Assembly: GCA_964587045.1 (NCBI GenBank)
Contig: CAZPJY010000003.1
Location: forward strand, 2,079-65,672
Direction of reading: 5' to 3'
Source of the DNA: an uncultured Methanosarcinales archaeon
GTDB lineage: Archaea; Nanobdellota; Nanobdellia; Woesearchaeales; CAZPJY01
DNA: 63,594 nucleotides
The notes under the pieces were generated by a model that saw only the letters and a list, made by a program, of their open reading frames with translations, was not told where the DNA came from and ran no database searches. Shown piece after piece: positions 18,985 through 27,337 of this stretch (positions are counted from its first letter, which is position 1; the number at the start of each line of letters is the position of its first letter). The position numbers and the translations under genes are program-made.

Positions 18985-19107
18985 GGGGCCGTAGTGTAGC
19001 TTGGTCCATCATTCCAGGTCGGGGTTTCGTTGAGGTCAGCCCTCCCTTATGGGCTGCGACGATGAGACGGAAACCTGGCGACCGGGGTTCGAATCCCCGC
19101 GGCCCCA
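18985..19107 (+). tRNA. intron-containing tRNA, best read as tRNA-Pro (anticodon GGG; CGG not excluded)
   Basis: Acceptor GGGGCCG/CGGCCCC plus A73 (Pro-like). D loop has A14, G18G19, A21. Anticodon stem CCAGG/CCTGG encloses 55 nt. T arm CGGGG-TTCGAAT-CCCCG. Splicing at 37/38 gives the loop UCGGGGA. Confidence 0.75.
19025..19072 (+). other. tRNA intron (48 nt, canonical 37/38 position)
   Basis: Relaxed BHB: stem CCAGG/CCTGG, 3' bulge AA|A, central helix UCGG/ACGG (U.G, C-G, G-C, G.A), 5' bulge GG|U, then an intron helix. Internal hairpin CAGCCC...GGGCTG. Confidence 0.6.
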
Positions 19108-20654: not shown

Positions 20655-20777
20655 CCCCACGTAGCTCAATTGGCTAGAGCGTTCGGCTGTAGATTCTCGC
20701 TGACGTACCCTGCGGGTAAGGATGACTGCGAGACAGCTGAAACCGAAAGGTTCCTGGTTCAAGTCCGGGCGTGGGGA
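20655..20777 (+). tRNA. tRNA-Tyr (anticodon GUA), intron-containing
   Basis: C1-G72 pair (CCCCACG/CGTGGGG) plus A73, the archaeal/eukaryal Tyr identity set. Anticodon stem TTCGG/CCGAA. Loop CTGTAG|intron|A. T arm CCTGG-TTCAAGT-CCGGG. Confidence 0.9.
20693..20741 (+). other. tRNA intron (49 nt, 37/38)
   Basis: Lies between G37 (20692) and A38 (20742). 3' junction is GAA|ACC, as in the Pro tRNA. Contains CTGA, hairpin ACCC-TGC-GGGT, GGATGA, an 11-nt spacer and CTGA. Confidence 0.8.
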
Positions 20778-20785: not shown

Positions 20786-20936
20786 GTATGATACTATATT
20801 ATTGAGGGTAATCAAGCTCAAATCACCGCAATCTTTATAAACCCCTACGAAATCCCCCTGACAGATGCGGGTCAGGACTTTCTATTATAATAAGCGTGTA
20901 TGACACGTCCGGGATATAGAAAGACCGCTGTCAGCT

Positions 20937-21011
20937 GCCCTGGTAGTGTAGTTCGGCCTATCATGAAGCCCTGTCGAGGCTTCGACCCGGGTTCGAATCC
21001 CGGCCAGGGCG
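20937..21011 (+). tRNA. tRNA-Asp (anticodon GUC)
   Basis: Acceptor GCCCTGG/CCAGGGC plus G73, anticodon arm AAGCC-CTGTCGA-GGCTT, T arm CCGGG-TTCGAAT-CCCGG. 75 nt. Confidence 0.9.
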
Positions 21012-21016
21012 TATAT

Positions 21017-21125
21017 GGGCCGGTAGCTCAGCCTGGTAGAGCACTCGGCTTTTAACCGAGTGGTCGCGGGTTCGAACCAGGGCGCTGGCGAAATGCTGGC
21101 CCTTGAGAAAGTCCCGTCCGGCCCA
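21017..21125 (+). tRNA. tRNA-Lys (anticodon UUU) with an intron in the T-loop
   Basis: 5' part is canonical (GGGCCGG TA GCTC AGCCTGGTA GAGC A CTCGG CTTTTAA CCGAG TGGTC GCGGG TTCGAA). The matching T-stem and acceptor 3' strands (CCCGT CCGGCCC A) appear only after a 35-nt insert. Starts 5 nt after tRNA-Asp. Confidence 0.8.
21077..21111 (+). other. non-canonical tRNA intron (35 nt, between positions 59 and 60)
   Basis: BHB: T-stem GCGGG/CCCGT, 3' bulge AG|T, 4-bp helix TTCG/AGAA (3 WC + G.A), 5' bulge AA|C, intron helix CAGGG/CCTTG. Confidence 0.7.
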
Positions 21126-21148: not shown

Positions 21149-21409
21149 ATGAGACGAAAAATAAAAGTCGCAAGCCACGTGCTCATGCCCAAGCACGAGA
21201 AGCTGAGCGAGAAGGCGAAAAACGATCTTCTTAATACATACAACATCACTGAAACGGAGCTGCCGGAAATACTGATTACGGACCCAGCCATTATAAACAT
21301 GAAGCCTTCTGTCGGCGATGTGATAAGGATTACCCGCAACAGCCCAACAGCAGGGACCACCTACTTCTACAGGTGCGTCAAGGAAAACAAAGGTGTCAAA
21401 TATGAATAG
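21149..21409 (+). CDS. rpoH: DNA-directed RNA polymerase subunit H (Rpb5 homologue)
   Basis: 86 aa. HVLMPKHEKLSEKAKNDLL...GDVIRITRNSPTAGTTYFYRCV is the RpoH core. First gene of the rpoH-B-A operon. Confidence 0.9.
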   Translation: MRRKIKVASHVLMPKHEKLSEKAKNDLLNTYNITETELPEILITDPAIINMKPSVGDVIRITRNSPTAGTTYFYRCVKENKGVKYE

Positions 21410-22889
21410 AAACGCGCGCGTTCTCCTCGGAAACTACTTCAGGCAGCAGAGCATCGTGTCCTCAGACATCGAGTCCTTCAACAACTTCGTCGAGAACGAG
21501 CTCCAGAAGATCATCGATGAGAACAGGGAGATAGAGCCCACCATCATCCCGCAGAACATCGACGAGTTCAAGATCAGGCTCGACAAGATCTGGGTCACCA
21601 AGCCCGAGATAACCGAAGCCGACGGCTCCAAGAGGAGCATATTCCCCGTCGAGGCTAGACTCCGTAAGATATCTTACTCAGCGCCTATCTTCATCGAAGC
21701 CAGCTCCCACATCAACGGAATCCAGAGGGAGAGCTTCACCACGCAGATAGGGAACCTACCAATAATGCTCAAGAGCAACTTCTGCCATCTCTCAAAACTA
21801 TCGCGGGAGGAGCTGATCAAGCAGGGTGAGGACCCAGACGACCTGGGAGGGTATTTCATCATCAACGGAACTGAGAAAGTGCTGATCAACATCGAAGACC
21901 TGGCGTCAAACAAGCTGATGGTCGTCAAGGAGACTTCAGGCGTGTCACAGTATTCTGGCAAGCTCTTCTCCGAGAGGGGATCCTTCAAGATACCGCACAC
22001 CGTTGAAAAGATGAAGGACGGCATCTACTACCTCTCATTCACCAGGGTCAAGAGGGTCCCGATAATCTACGTGATAAAGGCGCTCGGGCTGACCAAGGAT
22101 GAGGAGATCATGAAGTTCGTATCCGACAAGGAACAGTATGACGGCGTGCTGATCAACCTGTTCGAGTTCGCGAACGTTAAGACCGAGGATGACGCCCTCG
22201 ACCTCCTGGCAAAGAAGATAGGCATCGCACAGGCCAAGGAGATAAGGATCGAGAGGATGAAGGAGATCCTGGACAAGTACCTGCTGCCGCATCTCGGCAT
22301 AACACCTCAGGACAGGATCTACAAGGCGTACAACCTGTGCAAGATATTCAAGAATTTCATACTCGTGTCCGACGGCAGGGCGCCCCAGGACGACAAAGAC
22401 CATTACATGAACAAGAGGCTGAAGCTCTCAGGCGACCTATTATCCGACCTCTTCAGGGTGAACCTCAAGGTGCTGATAGGAGATCTGCTCTACAACTTCC
22501 AAAGGATTGTGAAGAGGGGAAAATTCCCGTCTATAAAGGTCATCATCAGGGACCAGCTGCTGACGAGCAGGATATACAGCTCGATGGCCACAGGCTCCTG
22601 GGTTGGCGGCAGGAAGGGCATCAGCCAGAGGATCCAGAGGCTGAATTTCCTGGAGACGGTCTCCCACCTCCAGCGCGTCGTCTCGCCGCTGTCGGCTTCG
22701 CAGGAGAACTTCGAGGCGAGGGAGCTGCATCCCACCCATCTCGGAAGGCTCTGCCCTATCGAGACTCCGGAAGGGACCAACATAGGACTCAGGAAGAACC
22801 TGTCAATGTTGGCTGACGTTTCGCTTGAGAGCGACGAGGAATCAGCGATGAGAAGCCTGAAAGGAATAGGCCTCAAGCCGGTGCTGTAG
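21402..22889 (+). CDS. rpoB2: DNA-directed RNA polymerase subunit B'' (N-terminal half of B)
   Basis: Homologous to the Rpb2 N-terminal half (protrusion/lobe/fork). Split B''/B' layout. ATG 21402 overlaps the rpoH stop; the ORF track starts at GTG 21393. Confidence 0.9.
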   Translation: MNRNARVLLGNYFRQQSIVSSDIESFNNFVENELQKIIDENREIEPTIIPQNIDEFKIRLDKIWVTKPEITEADGSKRSIFPVEARLRKISYSAPIFIEASSHINGIQRESFTTQIGNLPIMLKSNFCHLSKLSREELIKQGEDPDDLGGYFIINGTEKVLINIEDLASNKLMVVKETSGVSQYSGKLFSERGSFKIPHTVEKMKDGIYYLSFTRVKRVPIIYVIKALGLTKDEEIMKFVSDKEQYDGVLINLFEFANVKTEDDALDLLAKKIGIAQAKEIRIERMKEILDKYLLPHLGITPQDRIYKAYNLCKIFKNFILVSDGRAPQDDKDHYMNKRLKLSGDLLSDLFRVNLKVLIGDLLYNFQRIVKRGKFPSIKVIIRDQLLTSRIYSSMATGSWVGGRKGISQRIQRLNFLETVSHLQRVVSPLSASQENFEARELHPTHLGRLCPIETPEGTNIGLRKNLSMLADVSLESDEESAMRSLKGIGLKPVL

Positions 22890-22895
22890 GTGATT

Positions 22896-24701
22896 ATGAT
22901 GGACGAAGTGTACCTAAACGGCAAATTTGTCGGAAGCGTTGAAGACGGAAGGGAGCTCAAGGAGAAATTCATCGCCGAGCGGAGGAAGGGCAAGATTGAG
23001 AGCAATCTCAGCATCTACCTAAACGAGAACTCAGGCCAGATCTTCATCGAAGGCTCCAAGGGCAGGGTGAGGCGACCAGTCATCGTCGTGAAGAACGGAC
23101 AGTCCACACTCACCGAGCGGCATGTCAACCAGCTCGAGAAGGGAGAGACCACCTGGGCTGACATCGTCAGGGAGGGCGTGATAGAATACATCGACGCAGC
23201 AGAGGAGGAGAACTCGCTCATAGCCTTCTTCGAAAAAGACCTCACCAAGGACCATACACACTTGGAGATAACGCCGCTCGCGATGCTCGGCGTCTGCACA
23301 GCTCTGGTACCTTATGGAAACTACAACCAGTCCACACGCCTCAACGCAGGCTCAAAGAACCAAAAGCAGGCGCTGGGGTTCTACGCTGCCAACTTCGAAG
23401 TGAGGATGGACATGGATGTAAACATCCTCCACAGCCCTCAAAAGCCCATCGTCACAACCCAAATGTACGACCTGGCAAACTACAACCAGCACCCGGCAGG
23501 CCAGAACCTGGTTGTCGCCGTCATGAGCTACAAGGGCTACAACATGGAGGACGCCATCGTGATAAACAAGGCCTCGATCGAGAGGGGGCTTGGTAGGAGC
23601 ACCTACTACAGGCCGTCGATAGCAGAGGAGTTGAGGTACTCTGGCGGGCTGACCGACGAGGTCTGCATCCCAGACAAGGACGTCAAGGGCTACAAGTCCG
23701 AGCGCGACTACAGGTACCTTGAAGAAGACGGCATAATCTACGTCGGCGCAAAGGTAGAGGAAGGGGATGTGATAATCGGCAAGACGTCACCCCCTAGATT
23801 CCTGTCCAGCCTCGACGAATACAACCTGACATCTAGCAACAGGCGTGAGTCGTCAGTCGCGCTGCTGCACGGCGAGCAGGGCGTTATTGATTTCGTTCTG
23901 CTAACCGAGAACGTTGAGGGTAACAAGCTGGTCCAGGTGAGGATACGCGACCAGCGTATCCCTGAGATCGGGGATAAGTTCACCTCGAGGCACGGCCAGA
24001 AGGGAGTCGTTGGGCTGATAGTCCCGCAGTCTGATATGCCTTTCACCACATCCGGTGTCATACCCGACCTCGTATTCTCCCCACACGGCATCCCATCACG
24101 GATGACCGTCGCCCACCTGATAGAGCTGATCGGCGGTAAGGTCGGAGCCTTGGCTGGGCGTTACATCGACGGGACCACTTTCGATTCTGAGCCCGAAATG
24201 GCGCTTCGGGAAGAGCTGCTATCGCTCGGCTTCCGGGAGGACGGCAGGGAGACCATGTACGACGGCGTGACAGGCGAGATATACGAGGCTAAGATATTCG
24301 TCGGGAGCATGTACTATCTCAAGCTCAAGCATATGGTTGCAAACAAGATCCACTCGAGAGGACGCGGTCCGATCCAGCTGCTGACAAGGCAGCCGACCGA
24401 AGGCCGCGCCAAGGAAGGAGGGCTCCGCCTCGGTGAGATGGAGAAGGACACCTTCGTCGCGCACGGCGCAAGCCTGCTGCTCAAGGAGCGTTTCGACTCC
24501 GACAAGACCATAGTTCCTGTATGCGAGACATGCGGCACCATCGCTGTCCATGACGAGTTCAAGAACAGGTCGTACTGCCCGAGCTGCGGCGACAACACAG
24601 ACATCTCATACATTGAGATGGCTTACGCATTCAAACTGATAATGGACGAATTCAAATCGCTTGGCGTGCTGCCGACGATGCAGCTGCGCAACAAGTTTTA
24701 G
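22896..24701 (+). CDS. rpoB1: DNA-directed RNA polymerase subunit B' (C-terminal half of B)
   Basis: GDKFTSRHGQKGV, RMTVAHLIE, GEMEKD motifs and a C-terminal zinc ribbon CETCG...CPSCG. First ATG at 22896; GTG at 22890 is also possible. Confidence 0.9.
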   Translation: MMDEVYLNGKFVGSVEDGRELKEKFIAERRKGKIESNLSIYLNENSGQIFIEGSKGRVRRPVIVVKNGQSTLTERHVNQLEKGETTWADIVREGVIEYIDAAEEENSLIAFFEKDLTKDHTHLEITPLAMLGVCTALVPYGNYNQSTRLNAGSKNQKQALGFYAANFEVRMDMDVNILHSPQKPIVTTQMYDLANYNQHPAGQNLVVAVMSYKGYNMEDAIVINKASIERGLGRSTYYRPSIAEELRYSGGLTDEVCIPDKDVKGYKSERDYRYLEEDGIIYVGAKVEEGDVIIGKTSPPRFLSSLDEYNLTSSNRRESSVALLHGEQGVIDFVLLTENVEGNKLVQVRIRDQRIPEIGDKFTSRHGQKGVVGLIVPQSDMPFTTSGVIPDLVFSPHGIPSRMTVAHLIELIGGKVGALAGRYIDGTTFDSEPEMALREELLSLGFREDGRETMYDGVTGEIYEAKIFVGSMYYLKLKHMVANKIHSRGRGPIQLLTRQPTEGRAKEGGLRLGEMEKDTFVAHGASLLLKERFDSDKTIVPVCETCGTIAVHDEFKNRSYCPSCGDNTDISYIEMAYAFKLIMDEFKSLGVLPTMQLRNKF

Positions 24702-24712
24702 GAGGAAGCACG

Positions 24713-27337
24713 ATGGAAGAAGACATGAGACGGATCGTGCACAAGCAGGTCGACACCCTGGTTTTCGGAATACTGTCACCAAAACACATCAAGAAGATGG
24801 CAGCGGCCAAGATTGTGACGCCCGAGCTTTACGACAAGGAGGGCTACCCGGTCGACGGTGGACTCATGGATATCAGGCTCGGCGTGATAGATCCAGGACT
24901 GAGATGCAAGACCTGCGGGAGCAAACTCAAGGAATGCCCAGGACACTTCGGCTACATAGAGCTGGCAAGACCGGTATTCCACGTCAAGCTCATCGCAATC
25001 ATCCTAGACCTGCTAAGGATGACATGCAATGACTGCGGCAGGGTGCTGCTACCGCAGAACAAGATCGGACGCATAAAGAACATGCTCGACAAGCTCCCAA
25101 CAGGAAATGATATAACCGCGCGGCGTAAAGCCGTAAAGGAGCTGATGGGTAAGCTCAAGAGCGCAAGCAAGTGCCCTCACTGCAACTTCAAGCAGATTAA
25201 GATAATGCTCGACAAGCCCACAACCCTCATGGAGGGAGAGAAGAGGCTGTCCCCAATCGAGGTACGGGCGAGGCTGGAGAAGATCAGCGATGACGACCTG
25301 GAGTTGATAGGCTTCTCGCCGAAGCATTTCAGGCCCGAGTGGGCAGTGCTCACCATACTCGCAATTCCGCCGGTTACCATGAGGCCGTCGATCACCCTCG
25401 AATCGGGCGAGAGGAGCGAAGACGACCTGACCCACAAGCTCGGCGACATCGTGAGAATCAACCAGAGGCTGTTCGAGAACATCAACGCCGGTGCGCCGGA
25501 GATCATCATCGAGGACCTTTGGGACCTTCTCCAGTACCACGTTACAACCTTCTTCGACAACGACATCGCCCAGCTCCCTCCGGCGAGGCACAGGAGCGGC
25601 CAGCCCCTCAAGACCCTGACCGCCAGGATCAAGTCCAAGGAGGGAAGGATCAGGCACAACCTGGCAGGCAAGAGGACCAACTTCTCCGCAAGGACCGTCA
25701 TCTCTCCCGACCCAATGCTGAACCTCAACGAGGTCGGCGTGCCTATGGTCGTGGCCATGAAGCTAACCGTTCCAGAGCAGGTGACTCCCTGGAACCTTGA
25801 GTACTTAAGGGAGTTCGTCAAGAAGGGCCCCAAGGAATACCCGGGCGCCAACTACATCGTGAGGCCTGACGGCAAGAAGAAGAAGATAGCGGATGACACG
25901 TGGGAGCAGTGCATCGAAGAGCTTGAGCCGGGCTATACGGTAGAGAGGCATCTCCTCGACGGTGACATTGCGATTTTCAACAGGCAACCTTCACTCCACA
26001 GGATGAGCATGATGTGCCACAAGGTCAAGGTCCTGCCTTATAAGACTTTCAGGCTGAACCCTGCCGTATGCGCGCCTTACAACGCGGACTTCGACGGGGA
26101 CGAGATGAACCTGCACATTCCCCAGACCGAGGAGGCGCGAGCCGAGGCCGAGATCCTGATGGAGGTCCAGACACAGCTCATCTCGCCTCGCTACGGCCTG
26201 TCCATTATCTCATGCAACGAGGACGCCATCAGTGGCAACTACGTCCTCACCAAGGAAGTCCACGTGCCGAGGCACATAGCCCTGGACCTGCTGGTCAAGG
26301 CCGGATTCAAGGACTTCTCCAGGCTGCCAAGGAAGGAAACCATCAGCGGCAAGGAGATCTTCTCGATGGCCCTCCCCGAGGACTTCGAGTTCGAAGGCTA
26401 CTCCAAGGCGTGCAAGGACAACGTCGACCACAAGAAGCTCAAGACCGACTCCTACATCCTGATCAAGAAGGGCATGCTCCTCAACGGGGTCGTTGACAAG
26501 AGCGTGCTGGGATCCGGCTCAGGACTGCTCATCAGGACCATACACAAGAAGTACGGATCCGAAAAGACCCTCGAGGTGCTCAACAAGATATACCGGCTTG
26601 GGTTAGGGACCCTCCTGCTTAAGGGGTTCTCGACCTCGACATCAGACCTCGACATACCCAACGAGGCGACCAACAAGGTCAAGGCGATCGTCGAGCAGGC
26701 TTACAACGAAGTGGAGGACCTGATAAACCAGTACGAGACCCGCACGCTCGAGGCTTTCCCCGGGATGAGCCTGGACGAGACCTTAGAGAGGAAGATACTC
26801 GAGGTGCTGAACAAGGCCAGAAACGATGCGGGCAATGTCGTCATGGCCAATGTCGACCTCAATTCCAACACGCTCAAGATCGTCCAGAGCGGGGCAAAGG
26901 GGAGCTCCATCCACATCGCGCAGATGACAGCCATCGTCGGACAGCAGGCGATGAGGGGAAAGAGAATCCAGAAAGGCTACTATGAAAGGACGCTGTCGCA
27001 CTTCAGGAAGGGAGACCTGCGCCCAGCTGCGCACGGTTTCATCAGGAACTCATTCCGGCAAGGCCTCTCCCCATCTGAGTTCTTCTTCATGGGCATGACC
27101 GGACGTGACAGCTTGATGGACACCGCGCTCCGCACTCCCAAGAGCGGTTACCTCTACAGGCGCCTGGCCAACGCTATGCAGGACCTCAAAGTCGAGTATG
27201 ACAGCACTGTGAGGGATGCAGCAGGAAAGATTGTTCAGTTCCAGTACGGAGAGGATTCAATCGACGTATCCCGCTCGGAGAACGGCAGGGTCAACGTTCA
27301 AAACATTATCGATTCCGTGACAGGTGGTTCAAGATGA
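24713..27337 (+). CDS. rpoA1: DNA-directed RNA polymerase subunit A'
   Basis: Zinc motifs [16 protein letters not shown] and CNDCG. Catalytic loop [11 protein letters not shown]. 874 aa. Confidence 0.95.

Follow-up and report, generated by a model that had tools for sequence, protein, structure and literature searches.

We consider it very likely that the DNA analysed here, from a DPANN archaeon of the Woesearchaeota type, holds a functional tRNA-Lys(UUU) gene in single copy, and that this gene carries a bulge-helix-bulge (BHB) intron between positions 59 and 60 of the T-loop which is spliced by protein enzymes. This reading is based on the sequences of the gene, of its genome and of its relatives. 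It brings together a non-canonical intron site and a seemingly strict splicing endonuclease (EndA) of the alpha4 type, a cloneable pair of substrate and enzyme that bears on the determinants of endonuclease specificity.

The tRNA-Lys(UUU) gene and its intron

The window, by which we mean the whole analysed stretch of 63,594 nucleotides, contains the gene at 21017-21125. Direct reading shows a tRNA-Lys(UUU) gene whose T-loop is interrupted by 35 nt between positions 59 and 60, with the following division.

21017-21076, plus strand: 5' exon with the acceptor 5' strand, D-arm, anticodon arm, variable loop, T-stem 5' strand and T-loop nucleotides 54-59 (TTCGAA), from the sequence and a match to the Rfam tRNA model
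21051-21053, plus strand: anticodon TTT in the loop C-T-TTT-A-A (21049-21055), also given by ARAGORN on the spliced sequence
21077-21111, plus strand: intron of 35 nt at T-loop 59/60, whose removal leads to the ARAGORN call tRNA-Lys(ttt)
21112-21125, plus strand: 3' exon with T60, T-stem 3' strand CCCGT, acceptor 3' strand CCGGCCC and discriminator A, complementary to 21017-21023 and 21066-21070

The 5' exon reads GGGCCGG TA GCTC AGCCTGGTA GAGC A CTCGG CTTTTAA CCGAG TGGTC GCGGG TTCGAA. It is 83-93% identical to the tRNA-Lys(UUU) of five relatives from the same order (over positions 1-60 or 5-60), and the gene shares about 90% identity with the tRNA-Lys(CUU) of its own genome. The intron, CCAGGGCGCTGGCGAAATGCTGGCCCTTGAGAAAG, occurs only once in the genome. 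CCA is not encoded in the 3' exon. When exactly 35 nt are excised in silico, the junction of 21076 to 21112 reads ...GGGTTCGAA-TCCCGT..., and ARAGORN calls the 74-nt product tRNA-Lys(ttt). The T-loop of this product is the canonical TTCGAAT, and in its T-arm the product does not differ from intronless orthologues (GCGGG-TTCGAAT-CCCGT). The coordinates which the preliminary description had given for the gene with a 35-nt T-loop intron at 59/60 are exact. An alternative 37-nt splice register and other registers were rejected because their T-loops are non-canonical, with loops of 5 or 8 nt elsewhere than 59/60.

It had also been expected that default scans would miscall the gene, and this is what we see. 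ARAGORN does not call tRNA-Lys(UUU) in the window, with or without its intron option; it calls three other tRNAs there, and with the intron option it mislabels several intron-bearing tRNAs. The Rfam tRNA model gives a weak call that is cut short (21019-21089, 34.2 bits, model positions 3-68). The false acceptor strand in this call is the first GCTGGC of the intron (21084-21089), and not the CTGGCCC that had been proposed as the decoy. The only AAA-reading tRNA of the genome is therefore invisible to one program and truncated by the other. Many Woesearchaeota genomes are probably affected in a similar way, because 46 of the 122 Lys-type T-arms that we sampled carry an intron, and such genomes can seem to be without essential tRNAs.

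Gene status and neighbourhood

Two neighbours of the gene are important for its interpretation.

20936-21012, plus strand: tRNA-Asp(GUC), intronless, 4-5 nt upstream of tRNA-Lys(UUU), found by ARAGORN and Rfam
21149-21409, plus strand: rpoH, the first gene of the RNA polymerase operon, an ORF whose translation has the HVLMPKHEKL motif; it serves as synteny anchor for tRNA orthology

The tRNA-Lys(UUU) gene is probably co-transcribed with tRNA-Asp, since the short spacing would leave no room for a promoter. The cluster of Tyr, Asp and Lys tRNAs is found in relatives too. At its other side the gene ends 23 nt upstream of rpoH. As a side observation, rpoB is split directly after rpoH into B'' (498 aa, ORF 21393-22889) and B' (603 aa, 22890-24701), followed by rpoA' at 24713-27337.

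No second tRNA-Lys(UUU) was found in the genome (1.6 Mb in 50 contigs, with a completeness rating of 100%), though a further copy may in principle lie outside the assembled contigs. The search used ARAGORN, Rfam, blastn with the exons, a scan for UUU anticodon arms and a genome-wide BHB procedure, in which every BHB candidate was listed and removed in silico and the product was given to ARAGORN. This last procedure can detect a gene only if it has a single non-canonical intron and its motif is fairly strict. The anticodon at 21051-21053 belongs to the only UUU anticodon arm in a tRNA context genome-wide. The preliminary description had named another intact tRNA-Lys(UUU), with this locus unexpressed, as one of the observations that would refute its reading, and no such second gene came to light in the genome.

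This bears on the question whether the gene could be a pseudogene, disabled by the 35-nt insertion, with AAA decoding supplied in some other way. The failure of standard tRNA finders to call an intact gene fits this view. But the genome has no other tRNA for AAA, and the codon is used 20 times in the essential genes rpoH, rpoB'', rpoB' and rpoA' combined. Furthermore, both exons are undamaged and complementary to each other, the synteny with rpoH is kept, and the insert has a conserved splicing motif at a site that is common to dozens of species. We regard a pseudogene as very improbable.

The bulge-helix-bulge motif

The precursor can be read as the T-stem, a 3-nt bulge, a helix of four positions, a second 3-nt bulge and an intron hairpin.

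21066-21070, plus strand: T-stem 5' strand GCGGG (outer helix h), pairing with 21113-21117 (CCCGT); five pairs predicted by RNAfold
21071-21074, plus strand: central helix 5' strand U54 U55 C56 G57, opposite 21106-21109 (AGAA) by direct reading
21075-21077, plus strand: 5' bulge A58 A59 / C, with a cut predicted at 21076/21077 from the motif geometry
21078-21105, plus strand: intron hairpin with helix h', CAGGG/CCTTG closing GCTGGC-GAAAT-GCTGGC, from RNAfold
21106-21109, plus strand: central helix 3' strand AGAA; the site of G21107 is a G in 59 of 59 distinct introns of the pattern scan described below
21110-21112, plus strand: 3' bulge A G / T60, with a cut predicted at 21111/21112 from the motif geometry

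Both flanking helices of the strict hBHBh' motif are present, with the 5-bp T-stem as h and CAGGG/CCTTG plus a 6-bp inner helix as h'. The bulges, the T-stem and the intron helix are all as they had been described before. The two predicted cuts are symmetrical as well, since by the geometry of the motif each would lie two nucleotides into a 3-nt bulge. The earlier characterisation of the motif as near-textbook with a 4-bp TTCG/AGAA helix holds for the layout, but is generous for the central helix. This helix has three Watson-Crick pairs (U54-A21109, U55-A21108 and C56-G21107) and a G57.A21106 mismatch. In our own genome, 3 of 4 pairs are found in 5 of the 11 introns for which the central helix was scored, including both T-loop introns, and the intron of tRNA-Pro(GGG) in the window carries the same G.A. 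We assume that EndA cleaves a motif with this G.A efficiently.

The folding predictions differ between the parts of the motif. The intron hairpin reaches -14.1 kcal/mol on its own and is also present in the minimum free energy (MFE) fold of the whole precursor. The central helix is absent from the RNAfold prediction for the free RNA, which has a 7x7 internal loop in its place; a pair probability of about 0.03 is computed for this helix, and with -48.1 kcal/mol the BHB fold is less favourable than the MFE fold (-53.6 kcal/mol). Our support for the central helix is for this reason drawn from comparative evidence and not from free-energy folding. The motif is more than a chance resemblance, as relatives repeat this architecture at the same position.

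The same site in relatives

The host is a reduced-genome DPANN archaeon of the Woesearchaeota type, in line with the reduced-genome lineage that had been suggested. Relatives of the same family are absent among 199,900 species genomes. The same-order genomes are small (0.6-2.7 Mb) and labelled Woesearchaeota (DPANN). We assign the order to Woesearchaeales-type DPANN because the introns of several relatives (G003, G025 and G004 are examples) are identical to those of Candidatus Woesearchaeota contigs (L047, L079 and L062). In the relatives, tRNA-Lys(UUU) is likewise found upstream of rpoH; some copies are intronless and others carry an insert at the same site.

For a broad view of the distribution we scanned one genome per prokaryote species with a pattern that left the position opposite C56 free. 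The scan resulted in 64 loci, 61 of them archaeal, with 59 distinct introns of 13-43 nt. Where their lineage is named, the archaeal matches belong to Woesearchaeota or Nanoarchaeota, and the rest are titled 'archaeon' or, doubtfully, Methanosarcinales. The unconstrained partner of C56 is a G in every one of the 59 distinct introns. Three actinobacterial matches were discarded, since each is the T-arm of an ordinary tRNA with a chance match behind it.

In an order-wide sample of 401 genomes, only the T-stem and the acceptor strand were constrained. It gave 122 Lys-type genes, 75 intronless and 47 with an insert, which is located at 59/60 in 46 cases and at 53/54 in one. The 46 inserts at 59/60 represent 36 or more families of the order. 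Introns at this site are 12-43 nt long when both searches are taken together. Short introns (12-17 nt) have no inner helix, while the long ones, including ours, have a hairpin. Within the central helix of these 46 introns, pair 54 is U-A in 45, pair 55 is kept in all (once as C-G) and pair 56 is C-G in 45. Pair 57 covaries: the partner of A57 is U in 11 of 14 cases, and G57 (n=32) is found opposite C in 15, U in 5, A in 10 and G in 2, so that 20 of the 32 have a C or U partner. As the G.A combination occurs in 10 of the 32 relatives with G57, the mismatch in the window is a common variant. The 3' bulge reads AA/T or AG/T in 43 of the 46.

These comparisons also answer the concern that the insert might be an artefact of assembly or binning. 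The genome is a metagenome-style assembly in 50 contigs, which gives some ground for such a concern. The gene, however, is found mid-way along a 76-kb contig, and in independent assemblies from many studies the same position holds an insert with this motif. An artefact appears extremely improbable to us.

The taxonomic labels of some database entries deserve a remark. Several metagenome-assembled genomes (MAGs) titled 'uncultured Methanosarcinales archaeon' carry a Woesearchaeota-type tRNA-Lys with a T-loop intron (loci L034, L037, L039, L040, L051, L061, L063, L066, L074, L082, L083, L089, L092 and L094), and this label, a third-party annotation, looks doubtful.

The splicing endonuclease and ligase

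The genome encodes one EndA of 184 aa on contig C31 (locus L001, 397-951, minus strand). The protein matches PF01974 (3.6e-30), PF02778 and, over its full length, TIGR00324 (116.7 bits compared with a cut-off of 59.6), and it has N- and C-terminal domains and the catalytic Tyr, His and Lys. It aligns with the M. jannaschii alpha4 enzyme (PDB 1A79) over residues 16-184 with gaps of single residues only. The spacing from the catalytic Tyr to the His is 10 residues without a gap, as in M. jannaschii, compared with 16 in NEQ205. An acidic loop, VDDENDV, takes the place that the L10 loop has in M. jannaschii; the role of L10 is described in PMC6379350. Taken by its sequence, EndA looks like an M. 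jannaschii-like enzyme of the alpha4 type from a single gene, and it would presumably assemble as such.

We compared EndA with the specificity loops as they are defined in PMC3488258. The CSL loop is absent; A. pernix alpha has 9 extra residues around its own residues 40-46. The Nanoarchaeum-type loop is absent as well; in NEQ205, with its loop 90-98 (KKGKRSERE), the stretch from Tyr to His is 6 residues longer. The same is true more widely: 30 aligned EndAs of the order are all FGADFRVYDRGVKPGEDH-like, with the same spacing and no insertion between Tyr and His. Among these 30 are genomes whose tRNA-Lys introns are only 13-15 nt long and have no h' helix (G003, G025, G026, G031 and G037).

RtcB is present too (2e-159). 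The EndA gene and an RNase Z gene (TIGR02651, 319.5 bits; L001 983-1939, plus strand) point away from each other at a distance of 31 nt and form a small pair of tRNA-processing genes. In some relatives the EndA ORFs have an apparent N-terminal extension of 30-70 residues rich in Lys, Ala and Glu, which depends on putative starts and is absent in our genome (G002, G005, G006, G030, G036 and G037; loci L116, L110, L120, L102, L101 and L121). If it is real, this basic tail could have a role in RNA binding.

The preliminary description had held that a T-loop intron says something about the type of endonuclease. The outcome of our search is not the one that this might lead one to expect, as no heteromeric or three-unit enzyme came to light, but only an M. 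jannaschii-like alpha subunit without the published loops. The intron could still be real and be removed by an enzyme with another architecture of broad specificity, such as a heterotetramer with a subunit that escaped detection, a three-unit enzyme, or EndA together with a helper. This is the conventional expectation for a T-loop intron, as in reviews (PMC3488258, PMC6379350) enzymes of the (alpha-beta)2 and epsilon2 types are linked with non-canonical introns. Among solved structures, our EndA is in fact closest to the Nanoarchaeum heterotetramer's catalytic subunit (3iey_A, 2.1e-36), and the assembly is fragmented. Against this, the genome has one PF01974/PF02778 gene only, even at E<=10, and in a phmmer search with EndA as query, which covered every six-frame ORF of 50 aa or more, the next-best match reached only E=0.34. 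In PDB this query recovers the Nanoarchaeum structural subunit at 2.6e-16, and therefore such a paralogue should have shown up. Exactly one copy was found in 40 of 41 same-order genomes (our own included), that is in all 40 with a match, and several of these genomes are closed or nearly closed; the relatives' EndAs have 175-246 codons, except for two short or partial matches. Finally, our EndA has a full N-terminal domain and the VDDENDV loop, which the Nanoarchaeum catalytic subunit is without. An enzyme of another architecture thus seems unlikely.

A possible splicing pathway

From the motif and the enzymes present we infer that splicing would proceed as follows. In the precursor the T-stem would form, and U54-G57 would pair with the AGAA close to the intron's 3' end. 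The remaining intron would fold as a hairpin and leave the 3-nt bulges AA/C and AG/U, so that the T-arm, with its 5-bp stem and 7-nt loop, would present the motif just like an anticodon arm does. The single EndA would cut two nucleotides into each bulge, and RtcB would join the exons, which would restore the T-loop UUCGAAU. End processing, CCA addition and T-loop modification would then follow.

It is a wider question whether the same holds across Woesearchaeales, where a single M. jannaschii-like EndA, without a second subunit and without the L1/CSL, L2/ASL or L3/NEQ loops, might remove the 59/60 introns of Lys, Asp, Pro and other tRNAs, including those of 12-17 nt that have no h'. We see the chances of this as evenly balanced. 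In these short introns the 5' cut would fall in a hairpin loop. If the proposal is true, the rule that reserves relaxed, non-canonical motifs for heteromeric enzymes or those with a specificity loop needs revision. The tension with the view that alpha4 enzymes cut only strict motifs is mild in our own genome, because its tRNA-Lys(UUU) intron has both flanking helices, but it is real in the relatives with h'-less introns.

Comparison with known systems

The 59/60 site is listed among the known non-canonical tRNA intron sites (Yoshihisa 2014, PMC4090602), and T-loop introns are mentioned in reviews (Hirata 2019, PMC6379350). Introns at 59/60 are known mainly from Thermoproteales and other Crenarchaeota, and from Nanoarchaeota (PMC4090602, PMC6379350). 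The intron described here resembles them in its insertion site, in the logic of helix, bulge, helix, bulge and helix, in the protein-enzyme splicing pathway that its sequence suggests, and in being missed by ordinary tRNA finders. It differs in that its host is a Woesearchaeota-type DPANN archaeon, that the site is used in at least 36 families in an orthologous, syntenic gene, and that the accompanying enzyme is a single alpha subunit and not a heterotetramer.

The resemblance to a canonical 37/38 intron is also close: both have a stem of 5 bp, four nucleotides of the loop that can pair with the 3' part of the intron, and predicted cuts after the sixth and before the seventh loop nucleotide. 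In contrast to the canonical intron, this one is located in the T-arm, and the T-loop, and hence the elbow of D-loop and T-loop, would form only after splicing.

With regard to the enzyme, EndA shares with M. jannaschii EndA (alpha4, 1A79) the context of the catalytic Tyr, His and Lys and the acidic L10-like loop. Enzymes of the alpha4 type, that of M. jannaschii among them, are reported to act on strict motifs only (PMC3488258, PMC6379350), and euryarchaeal hosts of alpha4 and alpha'2 enzymes to have introns at 37/38 only (PMC4090602). Our organism, by contrast, has T-loop introns. In Kaneta et al. (2018, PMC5829648), alpha4-type EndAs in DPANN go together with many disrupted tRNA genes, one Woesearchaeota genome being included, and broad specificity is credited to the 'L3' loop of Nanoarchaeum and ARMAN-2. 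Like the DPANN set of that paper, our genome has a single alpha-type EndA and an intron-rich set of tRNAs. Unlike the L3-loop EndAs discussed there, our EndA and its 30 same-order homologues have no insertion between Tyr and His.

Both the 59/60 site and intron-rich tRNA sets of DPANN are already published, and the locus is an ordinary example of a described class. What goes somewhat beyond the papers cited here is the order-wide retention in an orthologous gene, the recurrence in several tRNAs and an EndA without the L3-type insertion.

Other tRNA introns

A second 59/60 intron in the genome is found in tRNA-Pro(UGG), at 10930-11028 of contig C38, where plain ARAGORN does not call a tRNA-Pro(UGG). 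This intron of 21 nt lies in a T-arm that reads ...CCCGG TTCGAA / AGCATCATCAGATGCCGGCAA / T CCGGG CAGCCCC A, with a central helix TTCG/CGGC (3 of 4 pairs) and an inner helix GCATC/GATGC. In the contigs fetched from relatives, a Lys(CUU) and a Cys gene also have a 59/60 intron, and in many Woesearchaeota contigs the tRNA-Asp(GUC) that adjoins tRNA-Lys carries an insert. Removal of this insert leaves a 3' exon of 14-16 nt, so that its site is in the T-loop, at 59/60 or close by (L015, L017, L029, L031, L034, L036, L037, L041, L049, L055, L056, L058, L060, L066, L068, L073, L077, L089, L091 and L097). The 59/60 position is an intron hot-spot in the order. The T-arm has a 5-bp stem and a 7-nt loop in common with the anticodon arm, and 59/60 may be seen as the counterpart of 37/38. 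This likeness would explain why the site is favoured.

The tRNA-Lys(UUU) genes of some relatives have two or three inserts, in the D-loop after GGTA, in the anticodon loop and in the T-loop. One has an intron at 53/54 with a perfect 4-bp central helix CGCG/GCGC. The loci in question are L029, L030 and L031 (from about 1500 onward) and L015 / G017:C4:65826-65875.

Our genome has about ten canonical 37/38 introns in addition. Two of them are in the window, where BHB-based splicing gives a tRNA-Pro(GGG) with a 48-nt intron at 18985-19107, which ARAGORN labels tRNA-His(atg), and a tRNA-Tyr(GUA) with a 49-nt intron at 20655-20777. Both introns contain GATGA and (C/T)TGA elements that resemble box C/D, and similar elements are found in the introns of tRNA-Trp (80 nt, contig C44), tRNA-Cys (C8) and tRNA-Met (C10).

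The single-intron scan of the genome did not find a further CAU tRNA, Ala-UGC, Arg-CCG or Gln-CUG, and these may contain several introns, lie in parts missing from the assembly, or not exist in the genome at all. Just upstream of the window (contig C3, 234-339), removal of a 31-nt canonical intron with a central helix CTTA/TAGG (4 of 4 pairs) gives a tRNA-Ile(UAU). Nanoarchaeum also uses a UAU isoleucine tRNA in place of a modified CAU tRNA.
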